Shown: in pieces, positions 8,138 through 32,000 of the stretch
Layout of the letters: each line of letters opens with the position of its first letter
Position numbering within the stretch: position 1 is the first letter of the stretch
Source of the DNA: Sinorhizobium meliloti
GTDB lineage: Bacteria; Pseudomonadota; Alphaproteobacteria; Rhizobiales; Rhizobiaceae
Direction of reading: 5' to 3'
DNA length: 32,000 nucleotides
NCBI RefSeq assembly: GCF_017876815.1
Contig: NZ_JAGIOS010000001.1
Location: forward strand, 2,520,001-2,552,000
Notes under the pieces: model-generated
Databases searched by the model: none
The model's input: only the letters and a program-made list of their open reading frames with translations
Told to the model about the DNA's origin: nothing
Program-made: the position numbers and the translations under genes

Positions 8138-8138
8138 C

Positions 8139-10013: not shown

Positions 10014-10915
10014 TCGAACGTCGGGCAATCACAACCGTCCCGTTGTGGCTGGAATGGCGGCGGTCATTTCTCTGTGCCTCAGAGGTAGCCGCAGCCGTCG
10101 GCGTCGACGAGTATCGTTCGCCGTTGTCGCTCTACGCCGAAAAGCTGGGCTTAACCTCTGTCACCGAGACGCCGATCATGCGGCGCGGCAGGCACTTCGA
10201 GTCGGCGGCGGTTTCATACCTTGCGGAGGAGCACCACGACTGGCGCATCGCCCGCCCTCACGTCTTTGTCATGGACACCGAAAGGCGGCTTGCCTGTACC
10301 CCGGACGTGCTCGCCGAGGTGCCTGGAAAGGACGGCATCTGCAACGTCCAGATCAAGACGATCTCGGCACCGAAATTCGAGGAATGGCACGGTGTCCCGC
10401 CAGCGGGATACACGCTGCAGGTCGCGACCGAGAACATGCTGCTCGACGCCGCGCACGGCTATCTGGCAGTGCTGGCGGTGTCGACCTACGAGGCAAGCCT
10501 GCATCTTTTCGAGGTGCCGCGTCACGAAGCAGCGGAAAAAAAGATTGCCTCAGTGGCACAGGATTTCTGGCAAAACGTCGAGGCGGGCCGATTGCCGAAA
10601 CCGGACTATCGCCTCGACGTCGACGTGATCGCCGAAATGCATCCGCAGGCGAAGAAAGGCGAGACCATCGATCTTTCCGGTGACAACCGGCTGGCGGAGA
10701 TCCTGCCATACCGGCGGCACCTGAAAGAGCGCCAGAAGGCGGTGGCCGACGAGTTGTCGGCGCTCGACGCCGAGATCCGCGACAAGATCGGTGACGTCGA
10801 GGAAGCCGAGTTTCCCGGCTGGCGGATCACCTACCGAAACCAGACGCGCAAGAGCTACACCGTGCCGGAATGGTCAGGGCGCAAGCTCAACATTTCCGAA
10901 AGGGGCAGGGAATGA
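10010..10915 (+). CDS. YqaJ-type (lambda-Exo-like) recombination exonuclease
   Basis: CASEVAAAVGVDEYRSPLSLYAEKLG (YqaJ N-terminal signature), TPDVLAEV...NVQIKT (D...Q/E-x-K catalytic pattern), and a coiled-coil tail. Confidence 0.8.
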   Translation: MIERRAITTVPLWLEWRRSFLCASEVAAAVGVDEYRSPLSLYAEKLGLTSVTETPIMRRGRHFESAAVSYLAEEHHDWRIARPHVFVMDTERRLACTPDVLAEVPGKDGICNVQIKTISAPKFEEWHGVPPAGYTLQVATENMLLDAAHGYLAVLAVSTYEASLHLFEVPRHEAAEKKIASVAQDFWQNVEAGRLPKPDYRLDVDVIAEMHPQAKKGETIDLSGDNRLAEILPYRRHLKERQKAVADELSALDAEIRDKIGDVEEAEFPGWRITYRNQTRKSYTVPEWSGRKLNISERGRE

Positions 10916-16367: not shown

Positions 16368-16646
16368 TTGGCCCGGAAGAAGAATTCAGACGCGCCCGCC
16401 ATCTGGCGTGAATTTTCCAATTCCCTTGATGATCCCAAACATCTCGCCGAGATGGTGCGCGGCTGGCGTGCCTACTTGGATATCACTGCCGATTTTGCTG
16501 CTACTCTGCTCGGCATTTCGGTGCGCACGTTGAACGGCATCGAGCAAGGCAGGGGCTTTCGTTATCCGCTTATGCTCATGCAAGCCATGACTGCTATCGA
16601 TCACGATGTACAAAACCATCGTGCCTCGCACGGAGCCGCAAAATGA
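16368..16646 (+). CDS. Small HTH protein (XRE-like), TTG start
   Basis: ITADFAATLLGISVRTLNGIEQGRG is HTH-like. ATGA overlap with the integrase start. Confidence 0.5.
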   Translation: MARKKNSDAPAIWREFSNSLDDPKHLAEMVRGWRAYLDITADFAATLLGISVRTLNGIEQGRGFRYPLMLMQAMTAIDHDVQNHRASHGAAK

Positions 16647-17842
16647 CGCTCGACGAAATCAAGAAACAGTATCCCGGCATCACCCGGTGGGAGGACCGCC
16701 TCGGCAAATTGCGCTGGCGGTTCCAGAAAAAAGGGATGAAGACGACTCTGATCCCGGTCGGCATCGAGCCGGGGACGAAAGCCTTCGACGTCGCTTACCG
16801 AGCGATCATTGAGAACCGCGCACCGCGCAAGGCCGACGTCGTGGTCGATATCCCCAACAATGCGTCATTGCCCGAAACCTTCAACGCTGGTTGGAAGCTC
16901 GTCTTGAAGTCACAAGCGTGGCGCGATCTCGCTCCAGCGGGCCAAGCGAAGCCGGAACGCATGGCGCGAGAATTCTTGGCCATGCCAATTGTCGTAGGTG
17001 AGAAGCTGACATGGGGTGACGTTCCGGTCGCCGACATGACTTACGAGGATCTGGAACTGCTAATCGAGCGCTGGGAGGTCACGCCGTCGAAGCCGTGGCA
17101 CATGAAGGTAATGCTCAAGAAGATCTTCTTTGAGGCCCGCCGTAAGGGATGGCGCAACGACGATCCGACCGAGCTTGTCAAATGGAAGCGTGGCGGCGGC
17201 AAGAAAGGCGGCTACATCGGCTGGAAACGGTGGCCGGAAGAAGTCTGCCTCCAATTCGAGGCCCGCCACAAGATCGGTTCGGCGGCGCGCACCTGTTATG
17301 CTCTCGCCAAATGGATGGGTGGTCGCCGGGGCGATATTGCCCGGATCGCATGGGACCAGCTGATCACCGTCGAGATCGACGGTGAGGTCGTCGAAGGCTT
17401 CGAATATGAGCAGCACAAGCAAGTCCATAGCGACGAGGACATGACTCAGTTCCGACCGATGACTTCGATGCTCGCCGAGGCGCTCGCACCGCTTGATCGA
17501 TCTTTAGGGGGCACAGTCTTGAAGACAGCCTATGGCAAGCCGTTCTCGGAAAAGAGCCTGACCGGGATGATGGCGCATTGGTGCAAGCAGGCTGACATCC
17601 CGGTCTCGAACAGAAAAACCGGTGAGGTTGGCTACACGCTGCACGGCCTGCGCAAGAGTTATGCGACGATGGTCGCCGAGAGTGGTGCCAGCTTCCAGCA
17701 GCAGAAAGACATGCTCGGCCATACCACCATGCAGCAGGTGGCGCTCTATGCGAAGGGCGTCGACAAACGCAAGACAACGGCGGCAGGCAGTCGCCTACTT
17801 GAGGAAAAGCATGGTCAGCCGCGCCTGCGTCTCGTCAAATAA
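16643..17842 (+). CDS. int: Tyrosine recombinase (phage integrase)
   Basis: 399 aa. C-terminal catalytic pattern: GGRRGDI (Arg), HGLRKSYAT (H-x-x-R), LGHTTMQQVALYAKG (His...Tyr). Confidence 0.9.
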   Translation: MTLDEIKKQYPGITRWEDRLGKLRWRFQKKGMKTTLIPVGIEPGTKAFDVAYRAIIENRAPRKADVVVDIPNNASLPETFNAGWKLVLKSQAWRDLAPAGQAKPERMAREFLAMPIVVGEKLTWGDVPVADMTYEDLELLIERWEVTPSKPWHMKVMLKKIFFEARRKGWRNDDPTELVKWKRGGGKKGGYIGWKRWPEEVCLQFEARHKIGSAARTCYALAKWMGGRRGDIARIAWDQLITVEIDGEVVEGFEYEQHKQVHSDEDMTQFRPMTSMLAEALAPLDRSLGGTVLKTAYGKPFSEKSLTGMMAHWCKQADIPVSNRKTGEVGYTLHGLRKSYATMVAESGASFQQQKDMLGHTTMQQVALYAKGVDKRKTTAAGSRLLEEKHGQPRLRLVK

Positions 17843-17908
17843 TAAGTAAGAGCGACCTGCCGAACCGCGCAATCGATTGCTCGGGCAGGCTGCTGGATGG
17901 AGCGACGA

Positions 17909-18439
17909 ATGAAAACCTATCTGGCACTCATCCAGCCCGGAGACGAGTGCCGTGCGCATGGTGTTACGTTCCCCGATCTGCCCGGTGTGCATTCAGCTGC
18001 CGACGACGAGAACGACATTCTCCCGCAAGCCATCGAGGCGCTGCAATTGTGGGCCGAGGACATGGACATGCCGGAGCCTTCGGACGTGGCCACCGTTACC
18101 AGCCTGAAGGAAGTGCGCGAGCGGCTCAACGCTGGCCACTATCTCATCGCCATTCCGTTCATCGAGAACGACACCGCTGTTGTGCGCGTCAACGTCACCT
18201 TCGAGCGCGGTCTGCTTAGGGCAATCGACAAGGCGGCGAAGGATCGCTCTCTGACCCGCTCGGCCTTTCTGGCCAATGCCGCGCGCCGCGAGATCGAAGG
18301 CGCGCACTACACAATCTATTCAAATAGACGGCGCAATTTTAATCGCCGACCAGCTACGGCAGACGCCGCAGTTATTAGAAAACCCGCACGAGAAGATACG
18401 GGATGCGGCGAGAAAACCCGAGAACAAATAGGGAAATGA
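17909..18439 (+). CDS. hicB: HicB-family antitoxin (HicB_lk N-domain plus RHH), with a ~45-aa non-homologous C-terminal tail
   Basis: MKTYLALIQPGDE..HGVTFPDLPGVHSAADD...VVRVNVTFERGLLRAIDKAAKDRSLTRSAFLANAARREIE. HicB proteins normally end about there; here the ORF reads on into AT-richer repeat DNA. No hicA is visible. Confidence 0.75.
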   Translation: MKTYLALIQPGDECRAHGVTFPDLPGVHSAADDENDILPQAIEALQLWAEDMDMPEPSDVATVTSLKEVRERLNAGHYLIAIPFIENDTAVVRVNVTFERGLLRAIDKAAKDRSLTRSAFLANAARREIEGAHYTIYSNRRRNFNRRPATADAAVIRKPAREDTGCGEKTREQIGK

Positions 18440-18963: not shown

Positions 18964-19617
18964 TTAGGTCAGAGGTATTCTAAGGTTTGGCCCTTCTGGC
19001 CGTAGCCGAAGACTCGGAATCCACTTTCGGTCTCTTCCCCGGGGAGGTGAATCGCCTTTAGGGGCAAGCCTTGATCGCTGTCTCGGTGAGCGGGACTCTG
19101 AGCGGTGATGTCCCACCCCGAAGTTGCTGGCATATCGACCCGTTTGAAAATGATGGAACCACTCTCGGTCATCGCCGGAGTAGTGGCCATTGACGTCCTT
19201 GCAACGCCAGAGCGGCGGCCGATCAAGCGCCTCCATCGCGAAGCGCAGTTCACCCCACTTCGTGTTTTTTATTACGGGATGTAGCGGATACACTGATTTC
19301 GCTTCGCGTGAAGAGTCGACCGCGCCGGAGACTGATAGAGAAATGGCAAAGGAAGATTCAGCAAAGAGGTGAAGACCGTCATCGTGCAATGCTCGCCTGC
19401 TTCGACACGCCTTAGAACGCGTCGATGCGATCAGGAAGGAATACGGCGGACGATCACGCAGTCTGTAGAAGGCTACCAGCCGACGAAGAAGGTCGGCAGC
19501 AACCCGGCAGCGAAGTGGAAGGTGCTGCTCGAAGACCCGCAAGATCTTCAGATCTTCCTCGCCATCAGCCATAGCGGTTCGCCTGCTCGCTCCAACGCAA
19601 GGCAGAGAACCGGGCAA
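18964..19617 (-). pseudogene. Ambiguous or decayed coding region (frame conflict)
   Basis: The 217-aa ORF has an Arg/Ser/Pro-rich, implausible tail. A second minus frame (18969-19253) reads more protein-like at the 3' end. A plus-strand frame has higher GC3 around 19440-19570. No motif recognised. Confidence 0.25.
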
Positions 19618-19667
19618 GGTGCCGCGGCGTCATTGCTTGAGCATGCCGGCAATGAAGGAGGAGACAG

Positions 19668-21554
19668 CTACACACCCAGGTTTATGTTCATGGACACGGA
19701 ATGGGGTTCATACTGCGATATGACACAGACGAAATCCACTGACCCGTTGCCATTCGTACCCGCAAGGCCGAAGCCAAGCCGCGGATAGAAATCCGAAACC
19801 ATTGCGTTGCGCTCTGTTGGTATATAGCGCCCGCGAATGCTGACCACACCGGCAGACACCGCCTCCTCGATCAGGCTGTTCATCAAGCCCTGTTCAACGC
19901 CCCGCTCAAGGACGCGGCACGATTGCAGCCAGGTGTCGATCTCCCATTCGGACCCCTTCTTGATGACAATGACGACTCCGATCGTGCCGTGCTGCGCAAA
20001 CTTATCGTCGAGCCTTATCTGCCAACCGATAAAATTTGGGTCTCCCTGCATGCGCCGAACGTCTTCATCGTTGTAGCGGCGCGTGGTGAGGTTGAACTGG
20101 TTGGACTTGTTGATGAGTTGAACGATGCGCGGACGGCCTACCTCGTCGAAGGGTGAGATGGTCATCCGCATCTCTAGGGACTTCAGATACTCCTCATAAT
20201 TGCCTACCCGCGCGCGGATCTCCGCAACTGCCGCACGCCCCCCGTAGCTGTTTGCCCGCGCCAGATCGTCGCAGTTCAGCGGCAGATGGTCGAAAAGACC
20301 TGAACCCGCGACGCGATCGATGAAGAAGGACGGATCCTCGCCTACCTCAATTGTGGAAACGAGCGGAAGCTCCCGTCGGACGCGTTCGCGTTCGGCAGGA
20401 TTGTCGTCAACATAGGCAAGTGACTCAAGACCGAGACCGAGTTTTTCGGCGATCGCACGAATATTAGTGGCCTTGTCGTCCCAATTGGCCTGAAACACGG
20501 CGATGTGCTCTTCTTTTAATAGCATATCAGGGTGCCGCCGGAACGGCTCACGCGCAACGGCATCGGTGTTTTTCGAACAGACGGCGAGGACTACTCCGCG
20601 TTCCCTGAGCCCCAGGACGAAGTTTTGGAACGCGATGAAGGCCTCTCCCTCTGCCGAATTCTGGCCGATCCGGATACCAGCAAGGCCGTCGTCACCAATG
20701 ACGCCGCCCCAAAGGGTATTGTCGAGATCGAGCACGAGGGCGCGGGCGCTCTTGCCGGACTTGGCCGCGAGGAGAGAAGCAATGTTGTCCGCCGCCAGTG
20801 GGCAGAGCTCAACATTGAAGGGCACCTTCGCCGAATGATAGGCCACCGGGTCGAACCAGCGCTCAATGCCGATCCGTGAAGCAAGGGCGGCTTGGTCCCA
20901 CATCAGCCACCGCCCCTCAGCAGCGCCATCACCAAGCATCATGTTGACCCGCAGCCGGAACCGGGCGATCGAACCCGGCGTTGCGATGTCTGCGGAGGTC
21001 AGTTGTATGCACGGCGGCAGCGTCGCAATGATTGCCGGGCATCCGGTCTTCGATCGCGCCGCCTCGGCGATCGCGGAAGCGATCCTTTCGGCCTCAAGCA
21101 CAGCCTCATCCTCCGCGACCCTGTCCAGCAGTGGCCTTTCCCCGTGAAGGGCGCTCTCATCCAGAACGGCAAGCACGGCATCGAGTCCTCGCTCGAAACA
21201 ATTTTTGGCGGAGAAAGCGAAGCCAGCTACCCCGTCGTATGGCGCTTCATGCGCCGAGACGAGGAGACCACGCGCCAAACCTGCCGCACCCAAGGGATCG
21301 CAGAGATAGCTCAGCGTCCGGTTTCCGAGGAGGCCGAGTTCGATGCGGGTGAAGCCGTTTCCCTTAATTTTGCCCAGCCGCTTGCCGAGGCGCTCGATCC
21401 TGAGCTGTTGGCGTGGGCCCAACTGCTGGTTGGCCACCGATCTGGTGGCGGCGTAGTCGGGCATTTCGCCGCCGGCGGCAATTGCCTCGAGCTCGGCCAC
21501 GCGTGCGGCCCAGTTCTCCTCAAGCGGCCGTCTCCACGGAAAGAACGTGTTCAT
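19668..21554 (-). CDS. FkbH-like HAD-IIIC phosphatase/acyl-loading protein (HAD domain plus C-terminal GNAT-like FkbH domain)
   Basis: 628 aa. HAD motif I LVLDLDNTLWGG, motif II VCSKN, motif III/IV KATNI...VDDNPAER. FkbH-domain signature NKSNQFNLTTRRY and LQSCRVLERGVEQ. About 270 aa at the N-terminus are unassigned. Confidence 0.85.
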   Translation of the reverse strand: MNTFFPWRRPLEENWAARVAELEAIAAGGEMPDYAATRSVANQQLGPRQQLRIERLGKRLGKIKGNGFTRIELGLLGNRTLSYLCDPLGAAGLARGLLVSAHEAPYDGVAGFAFSAKNCFERGLDAVLAVLDESALHGERPLLDRVAEDEAVLEAERIASAIAEAARSKTGCPAIIATLPPCIQLTSADIATPGSIARFRLRVNMMLGDGAAEGRWLMWDQAALASRIGIERWFDPVAYHSAKVPFNVELCPLAADNIASLLAAKSGKSARALVLDLDNTLWGGVIGDDGLAGIRIGQNSAEGEAFIAFQNFVLGLRERGVVLAVCSKNTDAVAREPFRRHPDMLLKEEHIAVFQANWDDKATNIRAIAEKLGLGLESLAYVDDNPAERERVRRELPLVSTIEVGEDPSFFIDRVAGSGLFDHLPLNCDDLARANSYGGRAAVAEIRARVGNYEEYLKSLEMRMTISPFDEVGRPRIVQLINKSNQFNLTTRRYNDEDVRRMQGDPNFIGWQIRLDDKFAQHGTIGVVIVIKKGSEWEIDTWLQSCRVLERGVEQGLMNSLIEEAVSAGVVSIRGRYIPTERNAMVSDFYPRLGFGLAGTNGNGSVDFVCVISQYEPHSVSMNINLGV

Positions 21555-21592
21555 AAAGCCGTGCCTCCCCGCGCCGGGGCGTTGATGATCGA

Positions 21593-21841
21593 TCAGTTCT
21601 GCTTGCGCTTGACCACGGCATCGATAAGGCTGCCGAGGTTCTTGAAACCTTGCACCTCAGCCGTGCTGAAGCGGACTGCGAGCTCCTGCTCGATCAGAAC
21701 CATCAGTCTGACATTGGACAGGCTGTCCCATTGCGGAACGTCGCGGGCCGTCGTCTCCAGCGTAATCGGGCCGTCGTATTCATCGAACAGCTCACGGATC
21801 ACGTCTGCGACTTGAGATAGATAAAGTTGATGGTCAGACAT
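21593..21841 (-). CDS. Acyl carrier protein
   Basis: 82 aa. The phosphopantetheine attachment motif WDSLSNV (DSL) sits at the start of predicted helix II. Acidic, ACP-sized. Confidence 0.85.
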   Translation of the reverse strand: MSDHQLYLSQVADVIRELFDEYDGPITLETTARDVPQWDSLSNVRLMVLIEQELAVRFSTAEVQGFKNLGSLIDAVVKRKQN

Positions 21842-21901
21842 TTGTTCAACCTTGATTTGACAGCAGTATTTGGCCGTCGACAGCGCTATGCGGTGCGCGA
21901 T

Positions 21902-23131
21902 TCATTTCCTTGCAGTTCGTTCGAGATAACTGTTTCGAAGCCGATAATTCTTCACCTCGGTCCGGATACGGCGCTCATAGGCCTCGACGTCTGCCGCGGT
22001 AAGCCTGTTTTCGCCCGTCGAAAGTGACGTAAGCGTTCGCCTGAGTAGCCCCGGGTTATAGACGTGCCCAGGATCACGAAAGTTGCCGAGGTCACCGGCA
22101 ATCCTGGGGTCATCATCCCATGCAAAGACGCGCACATTTGGCAGGGTGTCTATCGATTTGACAAAGCACCGCCGCGACAGCAGCACCTCATCCAGCAACG
22201 TCGCGCTTATGTCGCTCATGCGAAAATAGTAATTGGCGTAGGAGAGGATGGGCATGATGACGTCGACCTGCGCGCCCTTCTCGACGAATTTCCGAATCCT
22301 CGGCACGAGCTGCTCATTCACGGCATTGAAGCTCGCACACGTCCTGCCGCTCGGGGCGTCAACAACCGACCGATACTCTTCGATCAGGGCCTGCAGTTCA
22401 GCCATTTGGGCGGGCATCTGAAAGGACCGGTATTGCCTCTCCGTGAACTTGGCGTACCTTTTGTCGTCTTGCGCTTCGTAGCTCGTTTCTCCCAACAGGA
22501 CCTTCCATGTACGCCGCAACGATTTCAGGTCGACCATTCGGATGTCGTCGCTGATTTCCTCGTCATAAAGATACTCCGGAAAGCCCTGACGCATCTTTTC
22601 CGGGTCGAGAATGTACATCCAGTCAAACGTGATGATGATCCGTTTGGCTTGCGCGTTGATGGCGAGTTGATCGAGAACGATGTCGCGGTCCAGCGGTCGC
22701 GGCCCGCCATAGCTGAGATTGTAGGCTACGACACTTCCGCCCAGCGCTGAGGATATGTCATCGGGGGAATACATGGCCGTGGTCGAGCCGCCGACAAGAA
22801 ACGTGTTGATTCCCGATTGCTTCGACACGACGTCTACCCACCGCACGACGACATCGCGCGGGACGTCATTGCGCGTCAGTTTGAGCCTCGCTCCCCAGCG
22901 GTAGATGTCGTATGGATCCGTCGCAATGACGATCGTCACGATCGAAAGATACCCCAGCCAGACAAGGCAAAAGGTCACGATCATTGGAAGGGCGGCGCGC
23001 CAGCGTGGCGAGAAGCTTGGTTTCTTGCGGAGCGTGCCCCTCCGGCCATGCACATGCTCCGCTCCCATCCACCGACCTGCGGCCGACGGTAAATGTGGAT
23101 TTGTCGACGCGACAAGCATCTTTCCGATCAT
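21902..23131 (-). CDS. Membrane-anchored DltD/AlgJ-like (SGNH-like) protein
   Basis: 409 aa. One N-terminal TM helix (AALPMIVTFCLVWLGYLSIVTIVIA). Candidate nucleophile in FLVGGSTTAMY and candidate D-x-x-H in FRDPGHV near the C-terminus. Only 3 nt after the MBOAT stop. An alternative later start is possible. Confidence 0.6.
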   Translation of the reverse strand: MIGKMLVASTNPHLPSAAGRWMGAEHVHGRRGTLRKKPSFSPRWRAALPMIVTFCLVWLGYLSIVTIVIATDPYDIYRWGARLKLTRNDVPRDVVVRWVDVVSKQSGINTFLVGGSTTAMYSPDDISSALGGSVVAYNLSYGGPRPLDRDIVLDQLAINAQAKRIIITFDWMYILDPEKMRQGFPEYLYDEEISDDIRMVDLKSLRRTWKVLLGETSYEAQDDKRYAKFTERQYRSFQMPAQMAELQALIEEYRSVVDAPSGRTCASFNAVNEQLVPRIRKFVEKGAQVDVIMPILSYANYYFRMSDISATLLDEVLLSRRCFVKSIDTLPNVRVFAWDDDPRIAGDLGNFRDPGHVYNPGLLRRTLTSLSTGENRLTAADVEAYERRIRTEVKNYRLRNSYLERTARK

Positions 23132-23134
23132 GGC

Positions 23135-24412
23135 TTAAAATCCCTGATAGAGGAAAGGCGGCTGCCGCGAGACATAGTGCAGCGACGAGATGGTGAGGAT
23201 GGCGGCAAAAGCAGCCCAGCCCCAGGAAGGTCGCCAAATGCTGCGCAGGAACGCGAAGCCGTAGCTCTCGTTTTCATAGGTCATCATGGCCGGCCGATAG
23301 CGGCGCATCAGTTCCACGGCGTTTGGCATGAGATAGATGATTGAAAATGCACAGAACAGCATGAGCACGGGCTCACGCATTTCGAAGGCCGATGGGGCAT
23401 CGAGTGATGCGCCGAACATCTGCGCATAAAGATGAAACGCGGCACCGACGCTTTCGGAGCGGAACATCGCCAGGCTGAAGCAGATCAGCATAAAGAATAT
23501 GACGCGTTCCACCAGCAATCGGATGAACGGCGATGTAACCTTGCACATGCGCTTGTATTTCTTGCTGCCCCTTATCTGCGCCTCGGCCGCAGACCAAACG
23601 CCTTGCATCAGGCCGAAGGCCACGAAGGTCCAGGCGGCGCCATGCCATAGGCTGAGAACCTGAAAGTTGATTAGCATCGGCAGCCAGAGGCCGAGGATCT
23701 GTGTCGGCAGCGGTGAAAGCCGATGCACCGCGCAGTAGCGCGTCCCCGCGATTGAAAGCGGCGTAAATAGGAAACGCGCGATCACGCGCGTCAGAGTCAT
23801 GTTCCAGCGCCGGTAGTAATCGAGGATACCATTGGCTTTGAACGGCGAATAGAAGTTGAGCGGGTATCGCAGACCAAACATGCGCGCGAGGCCGAGCGCC
23901 ATGTCGGAATAGCCTGAAAAGTCAAAATAGAGCTGCGCCATGTAGGAGAGAGCGCCGATCCAGGCATGTGCGGGATCCATCACCGCTCCGGCTCCCGCAG
24001 CACCAAAGACAAGATCGACGGTTGGTGCAATATTGTCGGCGATGACGACCTTCTTGAACATGCCGATCGAGATAAAGGCGAGTCCCACGGCGATATCGAG
24101 GGGGTCAAAACTGATGAACTTCCTGGATTTTACCTGGGGATGGAATTCGTGCAGATAGGTAATTGGGCCGATAATCAACTGCGGAAAGAAGCTGACGAAA
24201 GCGCCATAACGGCAAAACGCCCAAAAACCGGACCTCAACGAACGAGTCCCTTCGAAAAATTCGACCACGCTCTTTTCGCGAACATAGGCATCCGCCAGAA
24301 AGGCCGCCTGATGGAACGTGTAGAATGAAATACCAGCCGGTATCGCCACGCCGGCAATATCGGTCAGGAAGTCACTATTTTCGCCAAGGAGAACTGTAAC
24401 GATCTTGTATTT
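23135..24412 (-). pseudogene. MBOAT (AlgI/DltB-like) O-acyltransferase, C-terminal fragment, separated by an IS21 insertion
   Basis: KIVTVLLGEN...GISFYTFHQAAFLADAY...YFDFSGYSDMALGLARMFG...YYRRWNMTL...LSLWHGAAWTF (MBOAT catalytic His motif). The 507-aa track ORF (to 24658) is a chimera that reads on into the IS end. Confidence 0.85.
24406..24412. repeat. Target-site duplication, left copy (TGTATTT)
   Basis: Identical 7-mer at 27011-27017, immediately outside the TG...CA termini of the IS. Confidence 0.8.
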
Positions 24413-24510
24413 TGCAAATTCCGAGGCAATCCGCCCCCTGATTCCGAAATGATCTCGCCCCCCAATTCCGAGAAATAGTCGCCCCCTGATTCCGAGATGA
24501 TGCCGCCCCC
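24413..24510. repeat. IS21 left-end multiple terminal repeats (about 4 units)
   Basis: Units of the form ATTCCGA(R)..AT..CGCCCCC repeat four times: AAATTCCGAGGCAATCCGCCCCC, TGATTCCGAAATGATCTCGCCCCCC, AATTCCGAGAAATAGTCGCCCCC, TGATTCCGAGATGATGCCGCCCCC. Confidence 0.8.
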
Positions 24511-24583
24511 ATCGGAAAGCATCTGGCGTGGGTGTTCTGCTGGTGTGAAGTTTCTTCCTTCGACGTGACGAGGAAGGAACGGG

Positions 24584-26134
24584 ATGCCTGCGGAGAGACT
24601 GGAGATGCGGCGTGTCCGCGAGATATTGAGATATCGCTTCGAACAAGGACTTGGCCACAAGTCGATCGCGGTTCGGGTTGGAGCTGCGCCATCGACGGTG
24701 CGCGAGACGCTTCGGCGTGCGGCCATTGCGGAGCTATCGTGGCCGTTGGGTGACGACATCAGCGATGCAGTCCTGGAAGCGGCGCTTTACAAGGCAGCCG
24801 GGACGAAGACGGGTCATCGTCGGAGCCCTGAGCCGGACTGGACGCAGGTCCACCGCGAGCTGAAGCGCAAGCATATGACGCTGCAGATCCTTTGGGACGA
24901 ATACATCAGCCGTTATCCGGAGGGCTATCGTTACAGTCGCTTCTGTGACCTCTACCGCGGCTGGGCGATGAAGTTGCCTGTGACGATGCGGCAGGATCAC
25001 GCGGCCGGCGACAAGCTGTTCGTCGACTACGCCGGCGACACGGTCACGGTTGTCGTTGATCGGCTGTCCGGCAAGACACGGCAGGCGCACCTGTTCGTGG
25101 CGGTTCTGGGAGCATCCAGCCTTTCATATGCGCAGGCACGTTGGAGCGAGACGCTTCCCGACTGGATTGAATGCCATATCCTGGCGCTGGAGTTCTTTGG
25201 CGGTGCGCCAGCCTTGCTGGTTCCCGACAATGCCAAGGTAGCGATCATCAAGGCCTGCCACTTCGATCCCCAGGTCAACCGGACGTATTGCGGGATGGCG
25301 GCCCATTATGGCAGCGCCGTCTTGCCGACGCGGCCGCGACGCCCGCGGGACAAGGCGAAAGTGGAAGCTGCGGTTCGTATCGTCGAACGTTGGCTGTTGG
25401 GCCGGCTGCGCCATCGCATCTTCTATAGTTTGGCCGAGGTCAATGCGGCGATTGGCCAATTGCTCCATGATCTCAATGATAAGCGCGTTCTGCGCCGTGT
25501 CGGCGCCACGCGCCGCCAATTGTTCGAGGAGCTTGATCGTCCGGCTTTGCGACCGCTGCCTGTCGAACGTTATGTCTTTGCCGAATGGCGTATCCGGCGC
25601 GCCGGGCTGGATTATCACGTCGAGATCGAGCGGCACTATTATTCCGTTCCCTATCGCTTTGCCCGCGAGCAGGTCGAGGCTCGTATCACCGCCAATACGA
25701 TCGAGATCTTCCACAAGGGCGAGCGAATTGCCGCTCACCGGCGCTCCAGCGGCAACGGCAAGCACACGACGATCCCCGATCATATGCCCTCTGCGCATCG
25801 CCGCTTTGCCGACTGGACGATTGAACGGATTCAACGCGAAGCCTCTGCGATGGGGCCGGATGTTGCGCTGTTGTGCGAGCGCATTCTTGCCGACAGGCCT
25901 CATCCCGAGCAGGGCTTTCGAGCTTGCCTCGGCATCATCCGCCTCAACAAGAGCTTCGGCCGCGACAGGGTCAATGCCGCTTGCGGCCGTGCGTTGGAGA
26001 TTGGCGCACGAACCTATGGCTCGGTGCGATCCATCCTCGACAATCACCTTGACCGGACGGCTGCCTCAAATGGAGCGGCGCCGCATGAACCGATCCATCA
26101 CGCCAACATCCGCGGACCTCGCTATTACCACTAA
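24584..26134 (+). CDS. istA: IS21-family transposase IstA
   Basis: 516 aa. N-terminal HTH (MRRVREILRY...GHKSIAVRVGAAPSTV), a DDE core (FVDYAGD...LVPDNAK...PRRPRDKAKVE), and an IstA-typical C-terminus. Confidence 0.92.
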   Translation: MPAERLEMRRVREILRYRFEQGLGHKSIAVRVGAAPSTVRETLRRAAIAELSWPLGDDISDAVLEAALYKAAGTKTGHRRSPEPDWTQVHRELKRKHMTLQILWDEYISRYPEGYRYSRFCDLYRGWAMKLPVTMRQDHAAGDKLFVDYAGDTVTVVVDRLSGKTRQAHLFVAVLGASSLSYAQARWSETLPDWIECHILALEFFGGAPALLVPDNAKVAIIKACHFDPQVNRTYCGMAAHYGSAVLPTRPRRPRDKAKVEAAVRIVERWLLGRLRHRIFYSLAEVNAAIGQLLHDLNDKRVLRRVGATRRQLFEELDRPALRPLPVERYVFAEWRIRRAGLDYHVEIERHYYSVPYRFAREQVEARITANTIEIFHKGERIAAHRRSSGNGKHTTIPDHMPSAHRRFADWTIERIQREASAMGPDVALLCERILADRPHPEQGFRACLGIIRLNKSFGRDRVNAACGRALEIGARTYGSVRSILDNHLDRTAASNGAAPHEPIHHANIRGPRYYH

Positions 26135-26146
26135 GGAGAACGAAAG

Positions 26147-26884
26147 ATGCTTGCCCATCCAACACTGGATAAATTGAATGCCATGGGCCTGGCCGGCATG
26201 GCAAAGGCCTTTGGCGAACTTGTTGCCAACGGCGAAGCCGAACATCTCTCGCACGCCGAATGGCTCGGACTGCTGCTCGAACGGGAGTGGAGCTCCCGTT
26301 ACGATCGGAAGCTTGCGGCACGCCTCAGGTTTGCCAAGCTTCGCCACCAGGCCACCCCAGAAGATGTCGACTATCGCGCCGACCGCGGCCTCGACCGTGC
26401 TCTCTTCATGAAGCTGCTCGGTGGCGACTGGATCAACGCCCATGACAATCTGGCCATTTGCGGACCCTCGGGTGTCGGAAAGAGTTGGTTGGCTTGCGCT
26501 CTCGGCCACAAGGCTTGCCGAGACGATCGCTCAGTTCTCTATCAGCGTGTCCCAAGGCTGTTTGCCCAGCTTGCGCTCGCGCGTGGTGATGGCCGCTACG
26601 CCCGCCTGCAACGAACCTTGGGCCATGTTCAGCTCCTGATACTGGATGATTGGGGGCTCGAGCCGCTCAACGAACAGGCCCGCCACGACCTGCTGGAAAT
26701 CCTCGAAGATCGCTATGGACGCAAATCAACGATCATTACCAGCCAACTTCCCGTGTCCGCATGGCACGGCGTCATTGGCGACCCAACCTACGCCGATGCC
26801 ATACTCGACAGGTTGGTCCACAATGCCCACCGCATCGAATTGAGCGGCGATAGTCTGCGCCGAAATCTACCGCGCAAAGCTTGA
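26147..26884 (+). CDS. istB: IS21-family helper ATPase IstB
   Basis: 245 aa. Walker A CGPSGVGKSW, Walker B LLILDDWG, and a typical IstB N-terminus (LDKLNAMGLAGMAKAF). Confidence 0.92.
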   Translation: MLAHPTLDKLNAMGLAGMAKAFGELVANGEAEHLSHAEWLGLLLEREWSSRYDRKLAARLRFAKLRHQATPEDVDYRADRGLDRALFMKLLGGDWINAHDNLAICGPSGVGKSWLACALGHKACRDDRSVLYQRVPRLFAQLALARGDGRYARLQRTLGHVQLLILDDWGLEPLNEQARHDLLEILEDRYGRKSTIITSQLPVSAWHGVIGDPTYADAILDRLVHNAHRIELSGDSLRRNLPRKA

Positions 26885-26935
26885 CACCTCGCCTGAATGA
26901 ACTGACAACAATCATCGCCTGCAGACCCCACTAAA

Positions 26936-27010
26936 CAGGGGGCGAGATCATCCCGGAAACCGGGGGCGCAATCATCTCGGAACAAAGGGGCGGCTTCATC
27001 GGAATCGGCA
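26936..27010. repeat. IS21 right-end multiple terminal repeats (about 3 units)
   Basis: The reverse complement reads TGCCGATTCCGATGAAGCCGCCCC, TTTGTTCCGAGATGATTGCGCCCCC, GGTTTCCGGGATGATCTCGCCCCC. This is the same unit as at the left end. Confidence 0.8.
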
Positions 27011-27017
27011 TGTATTT
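27011..27017. repeat. Target-site duplication, right copy (TGTATTT)
   Basis: Identical to 24406-24412. Confidence 0.8.
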
Positions 27018-27308
27018 GAAGTAGCACAGTGAGGCTATGTTGTATCCCTGACCGCACCCATACAGCACTCGTCGATATGGATTACTGTCGTCCGTAGCAA
27101 GGAGTGCGTTGGAGACTCCGAAATTGACAAGCAGGGCGACCAGCAGAAGAAATACCGAAGATATTCCATAAGGGGCATAAAAGATAATTGACGCCGTGAA
27201 AATGACCAGTAGTGCTTCATTCCTGCCTCGCGTCAAAAGCGCAAGGTAAAACGCAATAAGTGTCACCGGCAGGAAGAGAAATAGGAAGAGTGGATCGATA
27301 AAGATCAT
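27011..27308 (-). pseudogene. MBOAT (AlgI/DltB-like) O-acyltransferase, N-terminal fragment
   Basis: MIFIDPLFLFLFLPVTLIAFYLAL... is a typical AlgI/MBOAT N-terminus and ends ...NIASLCYFKY at the IS junction. Removing the IS plus one TSD copy joins it in frame to 24405 (..CYFKY-KIVTV..), giving a 522-aa protein. Confidence 0.85.
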
Positions 27309-27682
27309 ATCAAACCCAACCAATGTCAAAATTGGTCCGCAGCCACTTATCTGAGGCTGCGAATCCTACATGTGATGTAATTCGTCTTTGTCTTGCGATG
27401 CCAACGCAGCTCGCTGCGGAGCCCGAATGTCAATAAGTTTTGACAGCCTTATTTGACGCTGCCGAACAATGAAGAGATAACTATAGGTTATGCACCGAAA
27501 CACGAGGTTATCGGCAGAGTCTTCTATTGCAGCTAAAATTCAGGGGTAAAAAAAGCACGCATTGAAAGAGATGTAAATAGGATAGTAATGCCTTCGGCCT
27601 ATGTGACTGCGATTCAAAATTAAAACCTACGGGGTGTTGACGAAAATGCGTTGGCGCCGCTCTCCTGAAGCCGGTGCTCCTT

Positions 27683-28150
27683 TCACGCGTGACCGTTGAG
27701 CGGCGCGAGCGGATCTCCCTCGGCGCCCTCCACGGTCGCTCTTGTCATGAGTTCGACAACCAAGCCGGCCCGAGTGACTACGAAAGCAAGACGCCTCTTG
27801 AAAACCGCGCCATAGCAGGGGGCAACCACCACCATTCCGCCATCTGCCTCGAGTTTCGCCACGTCGTGCTCCAGATTGTCTGAGAACAGGCAGACGTGAT
27901 CGAGACCGCCGCCCTTGGCCAGCCGACTCGCGACGGGATTCGGCCCGTCACGCAACGGAGCCACCAGTTCGATCGGAACACTGTCGAGATAAATAAGGAG
28001 CGCGCAGGACACATTCTGGGCCGGATCGATTGCAGGCGGCACAACCAGCCTAGCTCCCTGCTGCGTCCACGTTTTCAGCGCACGATCCATGTTCGGCACG
28101 ACGAACCCATAGTGGAACACTTTACGCGGGTCGAAAGTGATATCTGCCAT
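27683..28150 (-). CDS. VOC-family protein (glyoxalase / methylmalonyl-CoA epimerase-like fold)
   Basis: 155 aa. FHYGFVVPNMDRALKTW and GLDHVCLFSDNLEHDVAKLEADGG are the paired beta-alpha-beta-beta-beta module signatures with His/Glu metal ligands. Confidence 0.7.
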   Translation of the reverse strand: MADITFDPRKVFHYGFVVPNMDRALKTWTQQGARLVVPPAIDPAQNVSCALLIYLDSVPIELVAPLRDGPNPVASRLAKGGGLDHVCLFSDNLEHDVAKLEADGGMVVVAPCYGAVFKRRLAFVVTRAGLVVELMTRATVEGAEGDPLAPLNGHA

Positions 28151-28356
28151 AGCTGGTGGCCCTGCTTGGGTTTAATGGCGTGATTTTTGCACGGGACGTT
28201 AACCGACCCGGCGCGGCTGCGCGAGCAGTTTCTTGCGGAAGACCCCGAAGGCTTCGATAGCGGAAGCAGGAGCGGCAAACGCCGCTCCGTTGTTGAGTAG
28301 TACCTTATTGATGACATCGATCTGCGCAGGAATTTGCGGATAAACGCGCCAAGCCA

Positions 28357-28968
28357 GTGACAGGGTTGGCAAGATGGAGCCTGCTCTCGTCCCAAGTCGC
28401 AGCGGCGTCACTGTCCAGATCAATCCTTGCTCGGCTGGATGAGGGTGATTTGCTCTTGGTGGCCGGCCGCCCAGGGCATGGCAAGACCACGCTCGGCCTT
28501 CAGCTGTTGCTCGACGCTGCCCGAGACGGCAGAAAAGCGGTCTTCTTCACGCTGGAGTTTACAGAACAGCAGGCGAGGCGGCACCTTCGGTCTTTGGACG
28601 AGGGGCGCCACGGTCTCTGCGATAAGCTGCAAATCTTGACGTCTGATGATATCAGCGCGGACTACATCATTCGCCATTTATCGGGGTCGGAGCGCGGGAC
28701 GGTTGCCGTTATCGACTATCTGCAGATACTGGATCAGCAGCGAAGCAAGCCAGCACTCTCGGATCAGGTTCTGGCTCTTGGCGACTTCGCCAGACAGACC
28801 GGAGTTGTATTCGGGTTCATCTCGCAGGTAGATCGGTCGTTTGATCCGGAAAGTAAGCGCTTGCCGGACATTCGGGACATTCGTCTTCCAAATCTCGTTG
28901 ATTTGCGGCTCTTCAACAAAGCCTACTTCCTACACAATGGTGAGGCCCGGCTTCAAGACGTTGCCTAA
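28357..28968 (+). CDS. Stand-alone DnaB C-terminal-domain-like (RecA-fold) ATPase, minimal (GTG start)
   Basis: 203 aa. Walker A GRPGHGKTT, a DnaB H2-like VIDYLQILD, and an H3-like FARQTGVVFGFISQVDR. It lacks the DnaB N-terminal domain, and the C-terminal motif region is degenerate. Confidence 0.65.
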   Translation: MTGLARWSLLSSQVAAASLSRSILARLDEGDLLLVAGRPGHGKTTLGLQLLLDAARDGRKAVFFTLEFTEQQARRHLRSLDEGRHGLCDKLQILTSDDISADYIIRHLSGSERGTVAVIDYLQILDQQRSKPALSDQVLALGDFARQTGVVFGFISQVDRSFDPESKRLPDIRDIRLPNLVDLRLFNKAYFLHNGEARLQDVA

Positions 28969-28977
28969 TGCGCTCAA

Positions 28978-29008
28978 CTGCCGCGATGTCCTGGAAGTGT
29001 CGCGGCAG
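28978..29008. other. Perfect 9-bp inverted repeat (CTGCCGCGA-N13-TCGCGGCAG)
   Basis: Located 10 nt after the DnaB-like stop. No U-tract follows, so it is not called as a terminator. Confidence 0.4.
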
Positions 29009-29164
29009 TCGGTCCGGCAGTGACGGGTGTTGGCGCGATGCCTGAACAGAGCTTGCACGAACGTGGCTTTACTCATCGGTTGCCGCTTGCAAATCACAGG
29101 ATTTCGATTTTACGCCAGCCGTTTTCAGCAATACGCTTCACCGACGAAATGCTGGAGAATCGCT

Positions 29165-29791
29165 ATGAACCGCGCGCTTGCATTCACAGTAGCCGTCCTG
29201 ACCTGCTCTCCGCTGTCGGCACAGGCCCAGGACACCTCCATGAGCTTCTTCGTCACCAGCGCAAATCCGGGCAGGGGTGGCGACCTCGGAGGCCTGGCCG
29301 GAGCCGACGCATACTGCAATTCTTTGGCGACGGCGAGTGGTTCGACGGGCAAGACCTGGAGAGCCTATCTATCCACCGACACCGAGAACGCCAGGGATCG
29401 GATCGGAAATGGTCCCTGGTACAACGCCAAGGGCGAGAAGATCGCTGACGATGTCGCCTCGCTTCACAGCGACAACAACAACTTGACCAAGCAGTCGGCT
29501 CTCAACGAGAAAGGCGAAGTCATTCCCGGCCGTGGCGACAGCCCGAACCGCCACGACATCCTGACCGGCTCGAAACCCGATGGAACCGCCGCACCGGAAA
29601 CCTGCGGAAATTGGACAATGGGCGGTGCGGAAGGCGCGGCGATCGTCGGCCACAGCGACCGCACGGGCCTGGACGATTCCGATGCGGCGAAATCCTGGAA
29701 CTCGTCGCATTCGACAAGAGGCGGCTGCTCGAACGAGGCATTCAAGGGAACCGGCGGAGACGGTCTCTTCTACTGCTTCGCAAGCAATTGA
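29165..29791 (+). CDS. Secreted endostatin-like (collagen NC10 / C-type-lectin-fold, DUF1554-like) protein
   Basis: Signal peptide MNRALAFTVAVLTCSPLSAQA. The mature part parallels human endostatin: GGDLGGLAGADAYC vs GGMRGIRGADFQC, KTWRAYLST vs GTFRAFLSS, GSKPDG...ETCGNW vs GSDPNG...YCETW, and a C-terminal FYCF vs VLCI. Confidence 0.65.
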   Translation: MNRALAFTVAVLTCSPLSAQAQDTSMSFFVTSANPGRGGDLGGLAGADAYCNSLATASGSTGKTWRAYLSTDTENARDRIGNGPWYNAKGEKIADDVASLHSDNNNLTKQSALNEKGEVIPGRGDSPNRHDILTGSKPDGTAAPETCGNWTMGGAEGAAIVGHSDRTGLDDSDAAKSWNSSHSTRGGCSNEAFKGTGGDGLFYCFASN

Positions 29792-30010
29792 CGGCAACAG
29801 GACTGCGCAACGGCTGCCGGTCCCATCGTTGACTATGTCGCGCGGACGACCCAAAGCTGCTCACGGCCATTATCAGGCGGCGACCTAGCATCAATTCATC
29901 CGCGCCGACGAGGGCGTTTTGGGATGCTCGCAACCAGAGTTCACGCACTTGCAACATGAGGCAATTCGGGCTTGAAATTCGTCAGGATTCCCTTTGTCTC
30001 TGAAGCAGCC

Positions 30011-30772
30011 ATGCCAAAATTCGACTCCTACGTGATCTGCACTTCTCCGCGCAGCGGCAGTACGCTTTTGTGCAAGCTGCTGGCGGCGACGGGCATCTCC
30101 GGGAACCCCGGGTCCTACTTTCATCGCCCCTCGATTGCCGAATGGCTGGCCTACTTCGAACCGGCCGCAGACGCCTCAAGGCCCGAGGCCGATATTCTGG
30201 CTACGATATTTCGAGCGGCAATCGCCAAAGGAAGCGGTGATACAAGCATGTTCGGCCTGCGGCTCCAAAGACATAGCTTTGATTTCTTCGTCCAGAAACT
30301 GGCAGTCCTGCACCCGGAACGCTCCAGTGATTTGCAACGAATTGAAGCGGCCTTCGGACAGACACTTTTTCTCCATCTCACTCGGCTCGACAAGGTTGAG
30401 CAGGCTGTCTCGCTGGTAAAGGCCGAGCAAACCGGGCTGTGGCATGCAGCTCCGGATGGAACCGAGCTGGAACGGACCGCGCCGCCAAGTGCACCTGTTT
30501 ACAACTCCGATGAAATCCGAACCTGGTACGAGAGATTTGCAGCCTATGACCAGGCCTGGAACGACTGGTTCGAAATGCAAGGAATTGAGCCCTTTCGGAT
30601 CGCATATGAGGCGCTTTCAGCCGATCCCCTGGGGAGCCTGCGCAAAGTACTGAGCCGACTGGGATTGAAGTGCGAGGGCGCGAGCGGCATCACACCCGGT
30701 GTGGGAAAGCTAGCCGACGCCACCAATCATGAATGGGCAATGCGTTTCCGTTTGGAGCACAATATCGCTTGA
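30011..30772 (+). CDS. Stf0-family sulfotransferase
   Basis: YVICTSPRSGSTLLCKLL (PAPS 5'-phosphosulfate-binding loop, as in mycobacterial Stf0 YLILATQRSGSTLL), LFLHLTRLDKVEQAVSLVKAEQTGLW, and WNDWFEMQGIEPFRIAYEAL. Confidence 0.75.
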   Translation: MPKFDSYVICTSPRSGSTLLCKLLAATGISGNPGSYFHRPSIAEWLAYFEPAADASRPEADILATIFRAAIAKGSGDTSMFGLRLQRHSFDFFVQKLAVLHPERSSDLQRIEAAFGQTLFLHLTRLDKVEQAVSLVKAEQTGLWHAAPDGTELERTAPPSAPVYNSDEIRTWYERFAAYDQAWNDWFEMQGIEPFRIAYEALSADPLGSLRKVLSRLGLKCEGASGITPGVGKLADATNHEWAMRFRLEHNIA

Positions 30773-30791
30773 ATGGTTGACCCGAAGGAGT

Positions 30792-31130
30792 TCAGGTCAA
30801 AAAGGGCATGATATCTACGCCGTCTCCTGGAAAGACTGTAATATGCGGGTGGTCCTGGAACAGCCGCGCCGCGGCCTCGATGCTTTCCGCCTCGACGACA
30901 AGGTAGCCGCAAAAGGGGTTCACGGCAGCGGCGACACCGTCCTTGGTCACGCGCGTCGTCTTGCCCACCATGCCACCACGATCGAGGATGGATGCGGCGT
31001 TTCTGTCCTCCCACGCTGCCCACTGTTCCAGGCCGACGGCATCGACCGCGTCCTGCTCGGCCTTGGGCAGGCTGCGGAAAGAGGCGAGGTCTTCGGGCTT
31101 CATGGTGTACACGGCTAGAAAACGGGGCAT
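30792..31130 (-). CDS. Small conserved hypothetical protein (dimeric alpha/beta-barrel-like)
   Basis: 112 aa from MPRFLAVYTMKPEDL. Its size and the pattern ...GYLVVEAESIEAAARLFQDHPH... resemble YCII/EthD-type barrels. Weak call. Confidence 0.45.
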   Translation of the reverse strand: MPRFLAVYTMKPEDLASFRSLPKAEQDAVDAVGLEQWAAWEDRNAASILDRGGMVGKTTRVTKDGVAAAVNPFCGYLVVEAESIEAAARLFQDHPHITVFPGDGVDIMPFLT

Positions 31131-31245
31131 CGGCGCTCTCTTCGTGGTGGTAGATGGGTACAAACTTACACTCTGTGCGGCCGAAGTCACCCGCTTGCCG
31201 CCACCAATCGTGGTCGGGAGATAGGCAGCTTCCGGCCCAAACCGG

Positions 31246-31773
31246 TCATTTAGGTAGTCCCGCTTCCCATTCCGAACGGAGCATGCTCATGATTGCGGTG
31301 TCCCATCTCTCGTCACCAACTTTGACAGACGACCGCCTCACTCCCTCGTGAAAAAAACCGACCTTGTTGTAGGTTCGGATAGCGGCACTGTTCCAGCTAT
31401 ATACGTTTAGCTCAGTTCTCTCGATTTCCGGATGAGAGAATGCCTGTTCCAATGCCGCTTCCAGCAACGATTTAGCTAGTCCTTGCCCCCGCATTGTTGG
31501 CGCGACCATGACGCGGCCAATCCTTGCAACGCCATTTCTCCAGTCCACAGCTAATTGGATATGGCCTACCAGAGCTTGAGTGGCGTTAACAGCCATCCAA
31601 GATAGCCGCTTTGGTGGTGCCGTTGTCCCGTCGATGATCATCTGTTCAAGCTGATCGTCGGTGATCGGATAAGTCAGATCAGGTCCGCCCCACTGCACCA
31701 CATCGCGCTCGCTGCTGAGCCAACTGCGAAGGACTGGAAAGTGTTTTGTTTCGAAATCGATTAAATTCATCAT
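31246..31773 (-). CDS. GNAT-family N-acetyltransferase
   Basis: 175 aa from MMNLIDFE. Acetyl-CoA-binding motif A VAPTMRGQGLAKSLLEAALEQAF, and RimJ/RimL-like NVYSWNSAAIRTYNKVGF. Confidence 0.8.
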   Translation of the reverse strand: MMNLIDFETKHFPVLRSWLSSERDVVQWGGPDLTYPITDDQLEQMIIDGTTAPPKRLSWMAVNATQALVGHIQLAVDWRNGVARIGRVMVAPTMRGQGLAKSLLEAALEQAFSHPEIERTELNVYSWNSAAIRTYNKVGFFHEGVRRSSVKVGDERWDTAIMSMLRSEWEAGLPK

Positions 31774-32000
31774 CTGCTCATTACAAACCGAACCGAGATT
31801 AAGCCTATAGCTTGAGACATCCACAGCGCAATGACCGCTGTTGGCGCATAAAAGCCATGCCGGAAGTGGGCTCTAGTCTGTATTCTTCGGGCATAAATCT
31901 TCAATCGCTGCCAACCTAGCGAAAAGCATACTTCCCTGTTGCCAGTGTATGGCATTCCAGCCGCAGAGTCGTGCGGCATCAATATTTGCGGGCGGATCGT

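Follow-up and report, generated by a model that had tools for sequence, protein, structure and literature searches.

A candidate envelope-polymer O-acylation cassette with an FkbH-like loader, interrupted by an IS21-family element, in Sinorhizobium meliloti

The gene cluster considered here lies within a 32,000-nucleotide (nt) stretch of Sinorhizobium meliloti DNA (contig NZ_JAGIOS010000001.1, 2,520,001–2,552,000), which is referred to below as the window and on which all positions are counted. Its five genes encode an FkbH-like protein of the HAD-IIIC class, an acyl carrier protein (ACP), a membrane-anchored SGNH/DltD-like protein, an MBOAT (membrane-bound O-acyltransferase) and a VOC-fold protein, and the MBOAT gene is interrupted by an insertion sequence (IS) of the IS21 family. 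The features, with the evidence by which they were assigned, are:

19668–21554, minus strand: FkbH-like HAD-IIIC protein of 628 residues, predicted ACP loader (TIGR01686, TIGR01681)
21593–21841, minus strand: ACP of 82 residues, phosphopantetheine site Ser40 in WDSL (PP-binding)
21902–23131, minus strand: membrane-anchored SGNH/DltD-like protein of 409 residues, predicted final acyltransferase (AlphaFold2 model and Foldseek)
23135–24412, minus strand: 3' fragment of the MBOAT gene, codons ~98–522 and stop, including N301, H354 and FLYQGF with Tyr519 (PF03062)
24413–27010, plus strand: IS21-family insertion sequence inside the MBOAT gene (IstA, IstB; ends set by alignment to the uninterrupted locus)
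27011–27308, minus strand: 5' fragment of the MBOAT gene, start codon at 27308 (rejoined reading frame)
27683–28150, minus strand: VOC-fold (Glyoxalase_4) protein of 155 residues, accessory (PF13669)

The five co-directional genes were found at the coordinates given in an earlier note on this DNA, and its account of an IS-split MBOAT gene agrees with the open reading frames (ORFs), the IS boundaries and the restored MBOAT ORF. Intergenic gaps in the cluster are 3–60 nt: the gene for the 409-residue protein starts 3 nt past the MBOAT stop, and 38 nt separate the FkbH-like and ACP genes. The VOC gene lies 374 nt upstream of the MBOAT start. The ratio of nonsynonymous to synonymous substitution rates (dN/dS) against orthologues is 0.03–0.27 for each of the genes, and all five are therefore real coding genes.

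On alignment, the cluster shows about 97% identity to a stretch of S. meliloti pSymB that adjoins the rkp-3 capsule genes. The window was rejected as the pSymB copy itself, since its right flank (27011–32000) shows 99.9% identity to the S. meliloti chromosome CP021818.1, which holds the identical set of VOC, MBOAT, 409-residue protein, ACP and FkbH genes. Because the pSymB region and this chromosome both hold the cluster, S. meliloti, judging from these alignments, carries two paralogous clusters, the first on the chromosome and the second on pSymB. The published 'algI paralogues' SMb20843 and SMc01551, recombination between which fuses replicons, are in agreement with this.

Families were assigned to the window proteins by Pfam and NCBIfam profile searches at curated cutoffs. 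The 628-residue protein, which the earlier note had taken for an FkbH/HAD-IIIC enzyme, is matched by TIGR01686 (FkbH domain; 285.8 bits against a cutoff of 146.65) over residues 271–597 and by TIGR01681 (HAD-IIIC; 59.6 bits against 35.75); there are no Pfam matches to it. The motif D276-x-D278-x-T280 and the residues S327, K361, D383-D384 and C546 (SCR motif) are kept in 69–73 of 71–73 relatives, and Cys546 is, to judge from work on OzmB, presumably the acyl-enzyme residue. The closest and only related solved structure is 3SLR, the N-terminal and phosphatase part of Bacteroides fragilis BF1531 (E 7e-52). Public annotation describes the protein merely as 'HAD family hydrolase'. The established activity of the family, as in FkbH and OzmB, is the formation of glyceryl-S-ACP from 1,3-bisphosphoglycerate, and to our knowledge its coupled dephosphorylation and thioester chemistry is known for that substrate only. 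By analogy we infer that the S. meliloti protein makes glyceryl-S-ACP from 1,3-bisphosphoglycerate. The pSymB counterpart is, from the order of locus tags, probably SMb20840, a gene that is listed as an uncharacterised protein together with exoQ and exoY in a table of the section of PMC12542648 on PhaR (AniA) binding and global gene regulation.

The presumed partner of this loader, the ACP, passes the PP-binding model narrowly (21.4 bits against a cutoff of 20.8) and its translation contains the site D39-S40-L41. In NCBIfam it matched generic ACP models only, every one below its cutoff. The closest PDB entry is 2LML, a 'putative acyl carrier protein' (E 4e-12), and no chain labelled DltC was found among the PDB matches at E ≤ 1. 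All the S. meliloti copies that were examined, on pSymB and on the chromosome, encode a 100% identical ACP. SMc01553 is the ACP of the chromosomal paralogue; a later paper credits work of 2010 (Davila-Martinez et al., Microbiology 156:230) with recognising it as an ACP-like protein, and says that its function needs further investigation.

No Pfam or NCBIfam model, the DltD models included, matched the 409-residue protein, and its profile returned only noise from the PDB sequences, with no DltD chain. A first AlphaFold model built on 26 close homologues (pLDDT 68) gave weak matches and was superseded by an AlphaFold2 model from a 100-sequence alignment (pLDDT 92.1, pTM 0.87). When this final model was compared with the PDB using Foldseek, DltD crystal structures took all of the top 12 places (E 1.8e-5 to 7.6e-4); SGNH hydrolases came next, with PatB lower in the ranking. 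It is by its fold that the protein would be related to DltD. A DltD/AlgJ-like protein had been proposed earlier, and the DltD/SGNH-like fold of the model supports this, as do Ser116 and His356, which together with G114 are invariant in relatives down to 18% identity. The profile search from which relatives were taken gave 1,312 proteins at E ≤ 1e-3 out of 1.84 billion representative proteins. A single N-terminal helix (residues 42–71) follows a basic segment and precedes the catalytic domain, an arrangement that suits an N-terminus in the cytoplasm and a catalytic domain in the periplasm. In public annotation (PGAP) the protein is labelled 'TonB-dependent receptor' (L001 14304–15533, P0001). 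This label was rejected: with its one helix at the N-terminus and its SGNH-like alpha/beta fold the protein is no beta-barrel.

Excision of the IS with one copy of its target repeat yields an in-frame MBOAT ORF of 522 residues from 27308, which shares 99% identity with the uninterrupted gene of S. meliloti ml59. PF03062 scores 59 bits on the restored protein and 58.4 bits on the 3' fragment. Against the DltB model TIGR04091 the score is 116.3 bits, under the cutoff of 375, and the nearest solved structure is DltB (6BUG, E 4.7e-17). In the alignment H354 (LWHG) falls on the WHG histidine of that structure, and position 301 on the histidine of the DltB segment RWHMSL, the second conserved histidine of MBOATs. 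The C-terminus, F517-L-Y519-Q-G-F522, is of the FXYXXF type, and a hexapeptide of this type ends 59 of 61 cassette MBOATs (41 as FxYxx[F/Y], 18 as I-[V/I]-Y-x-x-F). For PatA, and for DltX of the Dlt system, the tyrosine of the FXYXXF motif has been shown to be the residue that bears the acyl intermediate (PMC12148441). The features of an MBOAT/SGNH pair are thus present, namely an MBOAT with the catalytic His and FXYXXF and an adjacent, anchored partner of SGNH fold with Ser and His. In acidobacterial cassettes (L009 9697–14230, L010) two tandem MBOAT genes follow an AlgX-like SGNH gene.

A single model, PF13669 (Glyoxalase_4, 50.8 bits), passes for the VOC protein, and does so at the superfamily level; the equivalog models for methylmalonyl-CoA epimerase (TIGR03081, 29.2 bits against 114.95) and glyoxalase I (TIGR00068, 17 bits against 120) stay below cutoff. 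Because of the weak similarity to methylmalonyl-CoA epimerase, our guess is that it is a thioester C2 epimerase, or else an enediol-type isomerase or dehydratase.

One genome per species was scanned for relatives of the cluster. FkbH-like relatives at 34–95% identity are encoded at 70 loci in other genomes, from Alphaproteobacteria (Rhizobiales, Acetobacteraceae, Sphingomonadales), Acidobacteriota, Vulcanimicrobiota/Baltobacteraceae and one gammaproteobacterial metagenome-assembled genome. An ACP homologue is found in 68 of the 70 and an MBOAT in 63, within a few kb. Because these counts are reached despite rearranged gene order, the linkage is not due to chance; the exceptions that lack ACP or MBOAT are mostly short contigs. 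FkbH, ACP and MBOAT are therefore a conserved cassette that extends far beyond the Rhizobiales. The earlier note had asked whether the genes occur together; these three do, and the VOC accessory lies within the cassette in 11 of 73 loci. One of these is Bradyrhizobium lupini (L029 12715–13191), where the VOC gene comes directly after the ACP gene (PF13669, 58 bits); Sphingobium and Aurantiacibacter cassettes have none. As it is absent from most cassettes, the VOC protein was rejected as a core component.

It could be argued that the cluster joins by coincidence an ordinary acetyl-CoA-dependent O-acetylation pair of MBOAT and SGNH protein to an ACP and FkbH-like protein that serve an unrelated cytoplasmic pathway. 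The characterised MBOAT/SGNH pairs, Dlt excepted, do all use acyl-CoA (PMC12148441), and a fused tyrosine motif is the MBOAT architecture of the acyl-CoA type. Set against this, the MBOAT recurs in 63 of 70 loci from several phyla where, by our own estimate and assuming few MBOAT genes per genome, chance would place one in less than 1% of loci; the short intergenic gaps also speak for a functional unit. We regard mere adjacency as very improbable.

The cassette as a whole has four parts: loader, carrier, MBOAT and SGNH transferase. In the closest relatives the fourth slot is taken by the 409-residue family, for which a hidden Markov model of the close members finds a partner in 10 of 74 loci. 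The idea that the fourth gene is not conserved was nevertheless rejected, because the slot is occupied elsewhere by other SGNH-like subfamilies unrelated in sequence. Counting the 409-residue family, five such subfamilies fill it in at least 45 loci; they have an N-terminal membrane helix, GxS and DxxH, and one matches Pfam AlgX/SGNH. Distant relatives of the 409-residue protein adjoin an ACP and an FkbH-sized gene at two loci (L077, L078). The second of these shows an MBOAT as well, while the sequence of the first begins at the queried gene, so that its upstream side is out of view.

Two further families recur beside the core genes, a MaoC-dehydratase/ketoreductase (MaoC-KR) fusion in 13 loci and an S-adenosylmethionine-dependent methyltransferase in nine. 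Clustering of the neighbouring proteins at 73 loci showed that no two of MaoC-KR, VOC and methyltransferase share a locus. Because the three families exclude one another, they suggest alternative tailoring of an ACP-bound three-carbon (C3) dihydroxyacyl unit. In the FkbH-dehydratase-KR loading module of bryostatin BryA, dehydration and reduction give a lactyl unit, a route that the MaoC-KR variant cassettes mirror.

These accessories bear on the nature of the loaded unit. The export route could be unchanged and the subfamily could use some other acyl phosphate or donor, giving a different small acyl ester. The subfamily is indeed distinct from the FkbH proteins linked to polyketide synthases (PKS): no ketosynthase, FkbG/I/K-type or tetronate-forming gene is among the recurrent neighbours of the cassette loci, and the recurrent partners of the FkbH-like gene are MBOAT and SGNH-like proteins, which sets it apart from FkbH proteins feeding PKS, nonribosomal peptide or tetronate pathways. 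Some 270 N-terminal residues of the FkbH-like protein have no assigned function, and a profile match does not tell substrate specificity. On the other hand, the protein retains every HAD phosphatase motif together with the conserved Cys, which fits the 1,3-bisphosphoglycerate chemistry known from the family, and dehydratase-KR and methyltransferase accessories suit a dihydroxy C3 unit. A donor other than 1,3-bisphosphoglycerate is accordingly given a low probability, and glyceryl is kept as the preferred unit.

The genes around the cassettes point to the acceptor. Many cassettes are flanked by polysaccharide genes (Wzy, flippase, glycosyltransferases, GDP-mannose dehydratase-like, rkp). The pSymB copy adjoins the rkp-3 capsule genes, and the Aurantiacibacter copy adjoins genes for Wzy, a flippase, a pyruvyl-transferase and a sulfotransferase; because of these two contexts a capsular or other surface polysaccharide is the most likely acceptor. 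MBOATs elsewhere acylate lipids, proteins and small molecules, as reviews relate, and instead of a polysaccharide the cassette might modify a lipid of the membrane, the head group of lipid A, a protein in the periplasm or a small molecule destined for secretion. FkbH and MBOAT are co-mentioned only in papers on the aeruginosin/suomilide natural-product clusters, and the S. meliloti chromosomal copy has no adjoining glycosyltransferase. Yet a C-terminal Tyr shuttle with an adjacent membrane-anchored SGNH partner is what defines the bacterial polymer-acylating pairs, and this, with the polysaccharide genes beside so many cassettes, makes such an acceptor improbable in our estimation. The surface-polysaccharide acceptor is retained below. 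In Sphingobium aquiterrae (L003 1–8040) the cassette is not beside classical polysaccharide genes, but downstream of a giant PGA_cap and Mur-ligase protein and an ATP-grasp protein. This context hints at acceptors differing by lineage.

Taken together, the genes probably constitute an envelope-polymer O-acylation cassette of loader, ACP, MBOAT and SGNH transferase, with the VOC protein as an accessory, and what it most likely does is attach a small acid derived from sugar metabolism to a cell-surface polymer. From the known chemistry of the FkbH family, the 628-residue protein would take 1,3-bisphosphoglycerate, its HAD site (D276/D278) would strip the 3-phosphate, and the glyceryl group would be held on Cys546 and then passed to the phosphopantetheine arm at Ser40 of the ACP. 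Gene content suggests that the ACP-bound C3 unit is perhaps tailored, by the VOC protein in S. meliloti and some other lineages, and in others by the MaoC-KR fusion, with a lactyl-type product, or by the methyltransferase. As in Dlt and PatAB, the MBOAT would draw the acyl group off the ACP on the cytoplasmic side of the membrane and transfer it with the aid of His354 to Tyr519 of FLYQGF on the periplasmic side. Ser116 of the SGNH/DltD-like protein would pick it up there and esterify a hydroxyl of the periplasmic or exported polymer. A wider formulation, that the cassettes form a broad class in which FkbH diverts 1,3-bisphosphoglycerate to an ACP, the unit is optionally tailored to glyceryl, lactyl, O-methylglyceryl or an epimer, and a PatA/AlgI-type MBOAT with its SGNH protein esterifies surface polysaccharides, is put forward more tentatively, with confidence a little short of even.

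Several observations weigh against the proposed function, or at least against its being exercised in S. meliloti. We infer the acyl unit (glyceryl or lactyl), its passage from the ACP to the MBOAT and the acceptor alike, and we know of no report of a glyceryl- or lactyl-esterified polymer from this species. The ACP is without DltC-like sequence, and the TM-scores of the 409-residue model with DltD are just 0.33–0.44. Both S. meliloti MBOAT paralogues read YRRWNMTL, with Asn301, where 113 of 120 relatives have YRRWHMTL, with His; Asn301 need not inactivate the enzyme, because many eukaryotic MBOATs carry Asn at the equivalent position. Finally, the FkbH-like gene is split over two frames near codon 361 on pSymB of strain 1021 (L002 12071–13953) and near codon 138 on chromosome CP021818.1 (L075 12150–14026). 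These splits are independent frameshifts or sequencing errors. Strain AK21 reportedly lacks chromosomal SMc01741–SMc01554, whose description names 'acyl transferases; acyl carrier protein', as well as SMb20823–SMb20841 on pSymB, and the missing regions overlap both paralogous clusters. On account of the IS in the window, the FkbH frameshifts and the AK21 deletions, the cassette may be decaying, redundant or dispensable in S. meliloti.

The copy in the window is inactivated, because the IS splits its MBOAT gene. The element is 2,598 bp long (24413–27010), with istA at 24584–26134 and istB at 26147–26884. IstB_IS21 scores 237.6 bits, and IstA has rve and Mu-transposase C-terminal domains. The termini are imperfect inverted repeats, TGCAAATTCCGA and TGCCGATTCCGA, and the 7-bp target duplication TGTATTT stands at 24406–24412 and 27011–27017. 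All the characters of the IS21 family, istA with istB, terminal inverted repeats and a short target duplication, are present. Copies of the IS occur at 99.7–100% identity on many S. meliloti replicons. The element looks recently active in the S. meliloti lineage.

The cluster is also a mosaic. When 19000–28300 was compared with L001, L002 and L075, the segment 20500–21400 was 100% identical to the pSymB copy of ml59 and 92–96% identical to a chromosomal copy, other stretches lay nearer to a chromosomal copy, and from 27011 on the window was 100% identical to the chromosome. Such mosaic identity suggests that the paralogous clusters have undergone gene conversion or recombination with each other; their MBOAT genes are known sites of replicon-fusing recombination.

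Upstream of the VOC gene are genes for a KaiC/RecA-like AAA_25 protein (28357–28968), a DUF1554 protein (29027–29791), an Stf0-type sulfotransferase (29972–30772) and a GNAT protein (31246–31824), a set that recurs on another strain's chromosome. Next to the Aurantiacibacter cassette, too, there is a sulfotransferase gene. On the other side, a prophage-like or integrative element occupies position 1 to ~18800 and directly adjoins the cluster. Its assigned genes are:

2857–4107: AAA_25 ATPase
4599–5840: C5 cytosine methylase
7166–8272: MT-A70 methylase
9923–10915: YqaJ recombinase-type protein
16643–17842: tyrosine integrase
17897–18439: HicB antitoxin

Among the S. meliloti replicons in the plasmid collection this element had no match. 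A scan of the whole window for tRNA genes found none.

The cassette can be compared with the Dlt system. As in Dlt, a dedicated carrier protein is predicted to give a thioester-bound acyl group to an MBOAT, and the group is predicted to cross the membrane and to be placed on a polymer by a membrane-anchored SGNH protein of DltD-like fold; DltB and DltD are also the closest solved structures to the MBOAT and the 409-residue protein. Unlike Dlt, there is no AMP-binding domain among the five genes or their recurrent neighbours, and an FkbH-domain protein, the predicted loader, would stand in for DltA. The earlier note had proposed just such a replacement within a Dlt-like logic, and the proposal finds support in silico. 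The MBOAT does not reach the cutoff of the DltB equivalog model, and the ACP does not resemble DltC. The MBOAT C-terminus itself bears the tyrosine shuttle, which Dlt has on the microprotein DltX. In place of an amino acid, a C3 hydroxy acid is predicted as the acyl group, and the cassette hosts are Gram-negative.

In other respects the cassette resembles PatA/PatB of peptidoglycan, AlgI/AlgJ/AlgX of alginate and WssH/WssI of cellulose acetylation. These too have an MBOAT with a C-terminal FXYXXF shuttle and an adjacent gene for a periplasmic SGNH partner, and in some cassettes the partner matches Pfam AlgX. The difference from PatA/PatB, AlgI and WssH/WssI is that the cassette conserves a dedicated ACP and loader, where those systems are described as using acetyl-CoA. 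According to a paper of 2025, MBOAT/SGNH pathways other than Dlt have no carrier protein, since their donor is acyl-CoA (PMC12148441). Because its MBOAT carries its own C-terminal FXYXXF instead of relying on DltX, the cassette is a hybrid in which a donor logic of the Dlt type is joined to an architecture of the PatA/AlgI type.

With FkbH, OzmB and the zwittermicin and tetronate loaders it shares an FkbH domain above cutoff, the HAD-IIIC motifs and Cys, and an adjacent dedicated ACP. Unlike the FkbH systems of PKS and tetronate pathways, the predicted consumer of the acyl-ACP is a membrane MBOAT and not a PKS. In the full-text literature, in a coverage that leaves out Davila-Martinez et al. 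2010 (SMc01553), FkbH was not found linked to a bacterial MBOAT system beyond the aeruginosin/suomilide co-mentions. A functional study of the S. meliloti cluster locus tags or of a gellan glyceryl transferase was likewise not found in the literature. The Sphingomonas promonan acyltransferase was rejected as a related system, being an OafA-type enzyme. Literature describing the gene combination was not found, in line with the earlier note, which knew of no characterised example. The cassette is widespread and uncharacterised, and what appears to be new is the combination of FkbH loader, ACP and PatA/AlgI-type MBOAT.

The FkbH enzyme family is not known outside antibiotic biosynthesis and the making of polyketide extender and starter units, and the finding is of interest to cell-envelope and natural-product biochemists alike. 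If the proposal is true, this is the second carrier-protein-dependent MBOAT pathway after Dlt, and the cassette would counter the 2025 view of the non-Dlt pathways as free of carrier proteins (PMC12148441). If confirmed, it ties central glycolysis directly to the decoration of surface polymers, and adds hydroxy-acid esters, with tailoring inside the cassette, to the known envelope modifications. The cassette offers candidate genes for substituents of unexplained genetic origin, such as the glycerate on sphingans, and could be the missing genetic basis of the glycerate esters on exopolysaccharides such as gellan. In rhizobia, where surface-polysaccharide decoration affects symbiosis and phage sensitivity, the cluster is duplicated beside a strain-variable capsule region.

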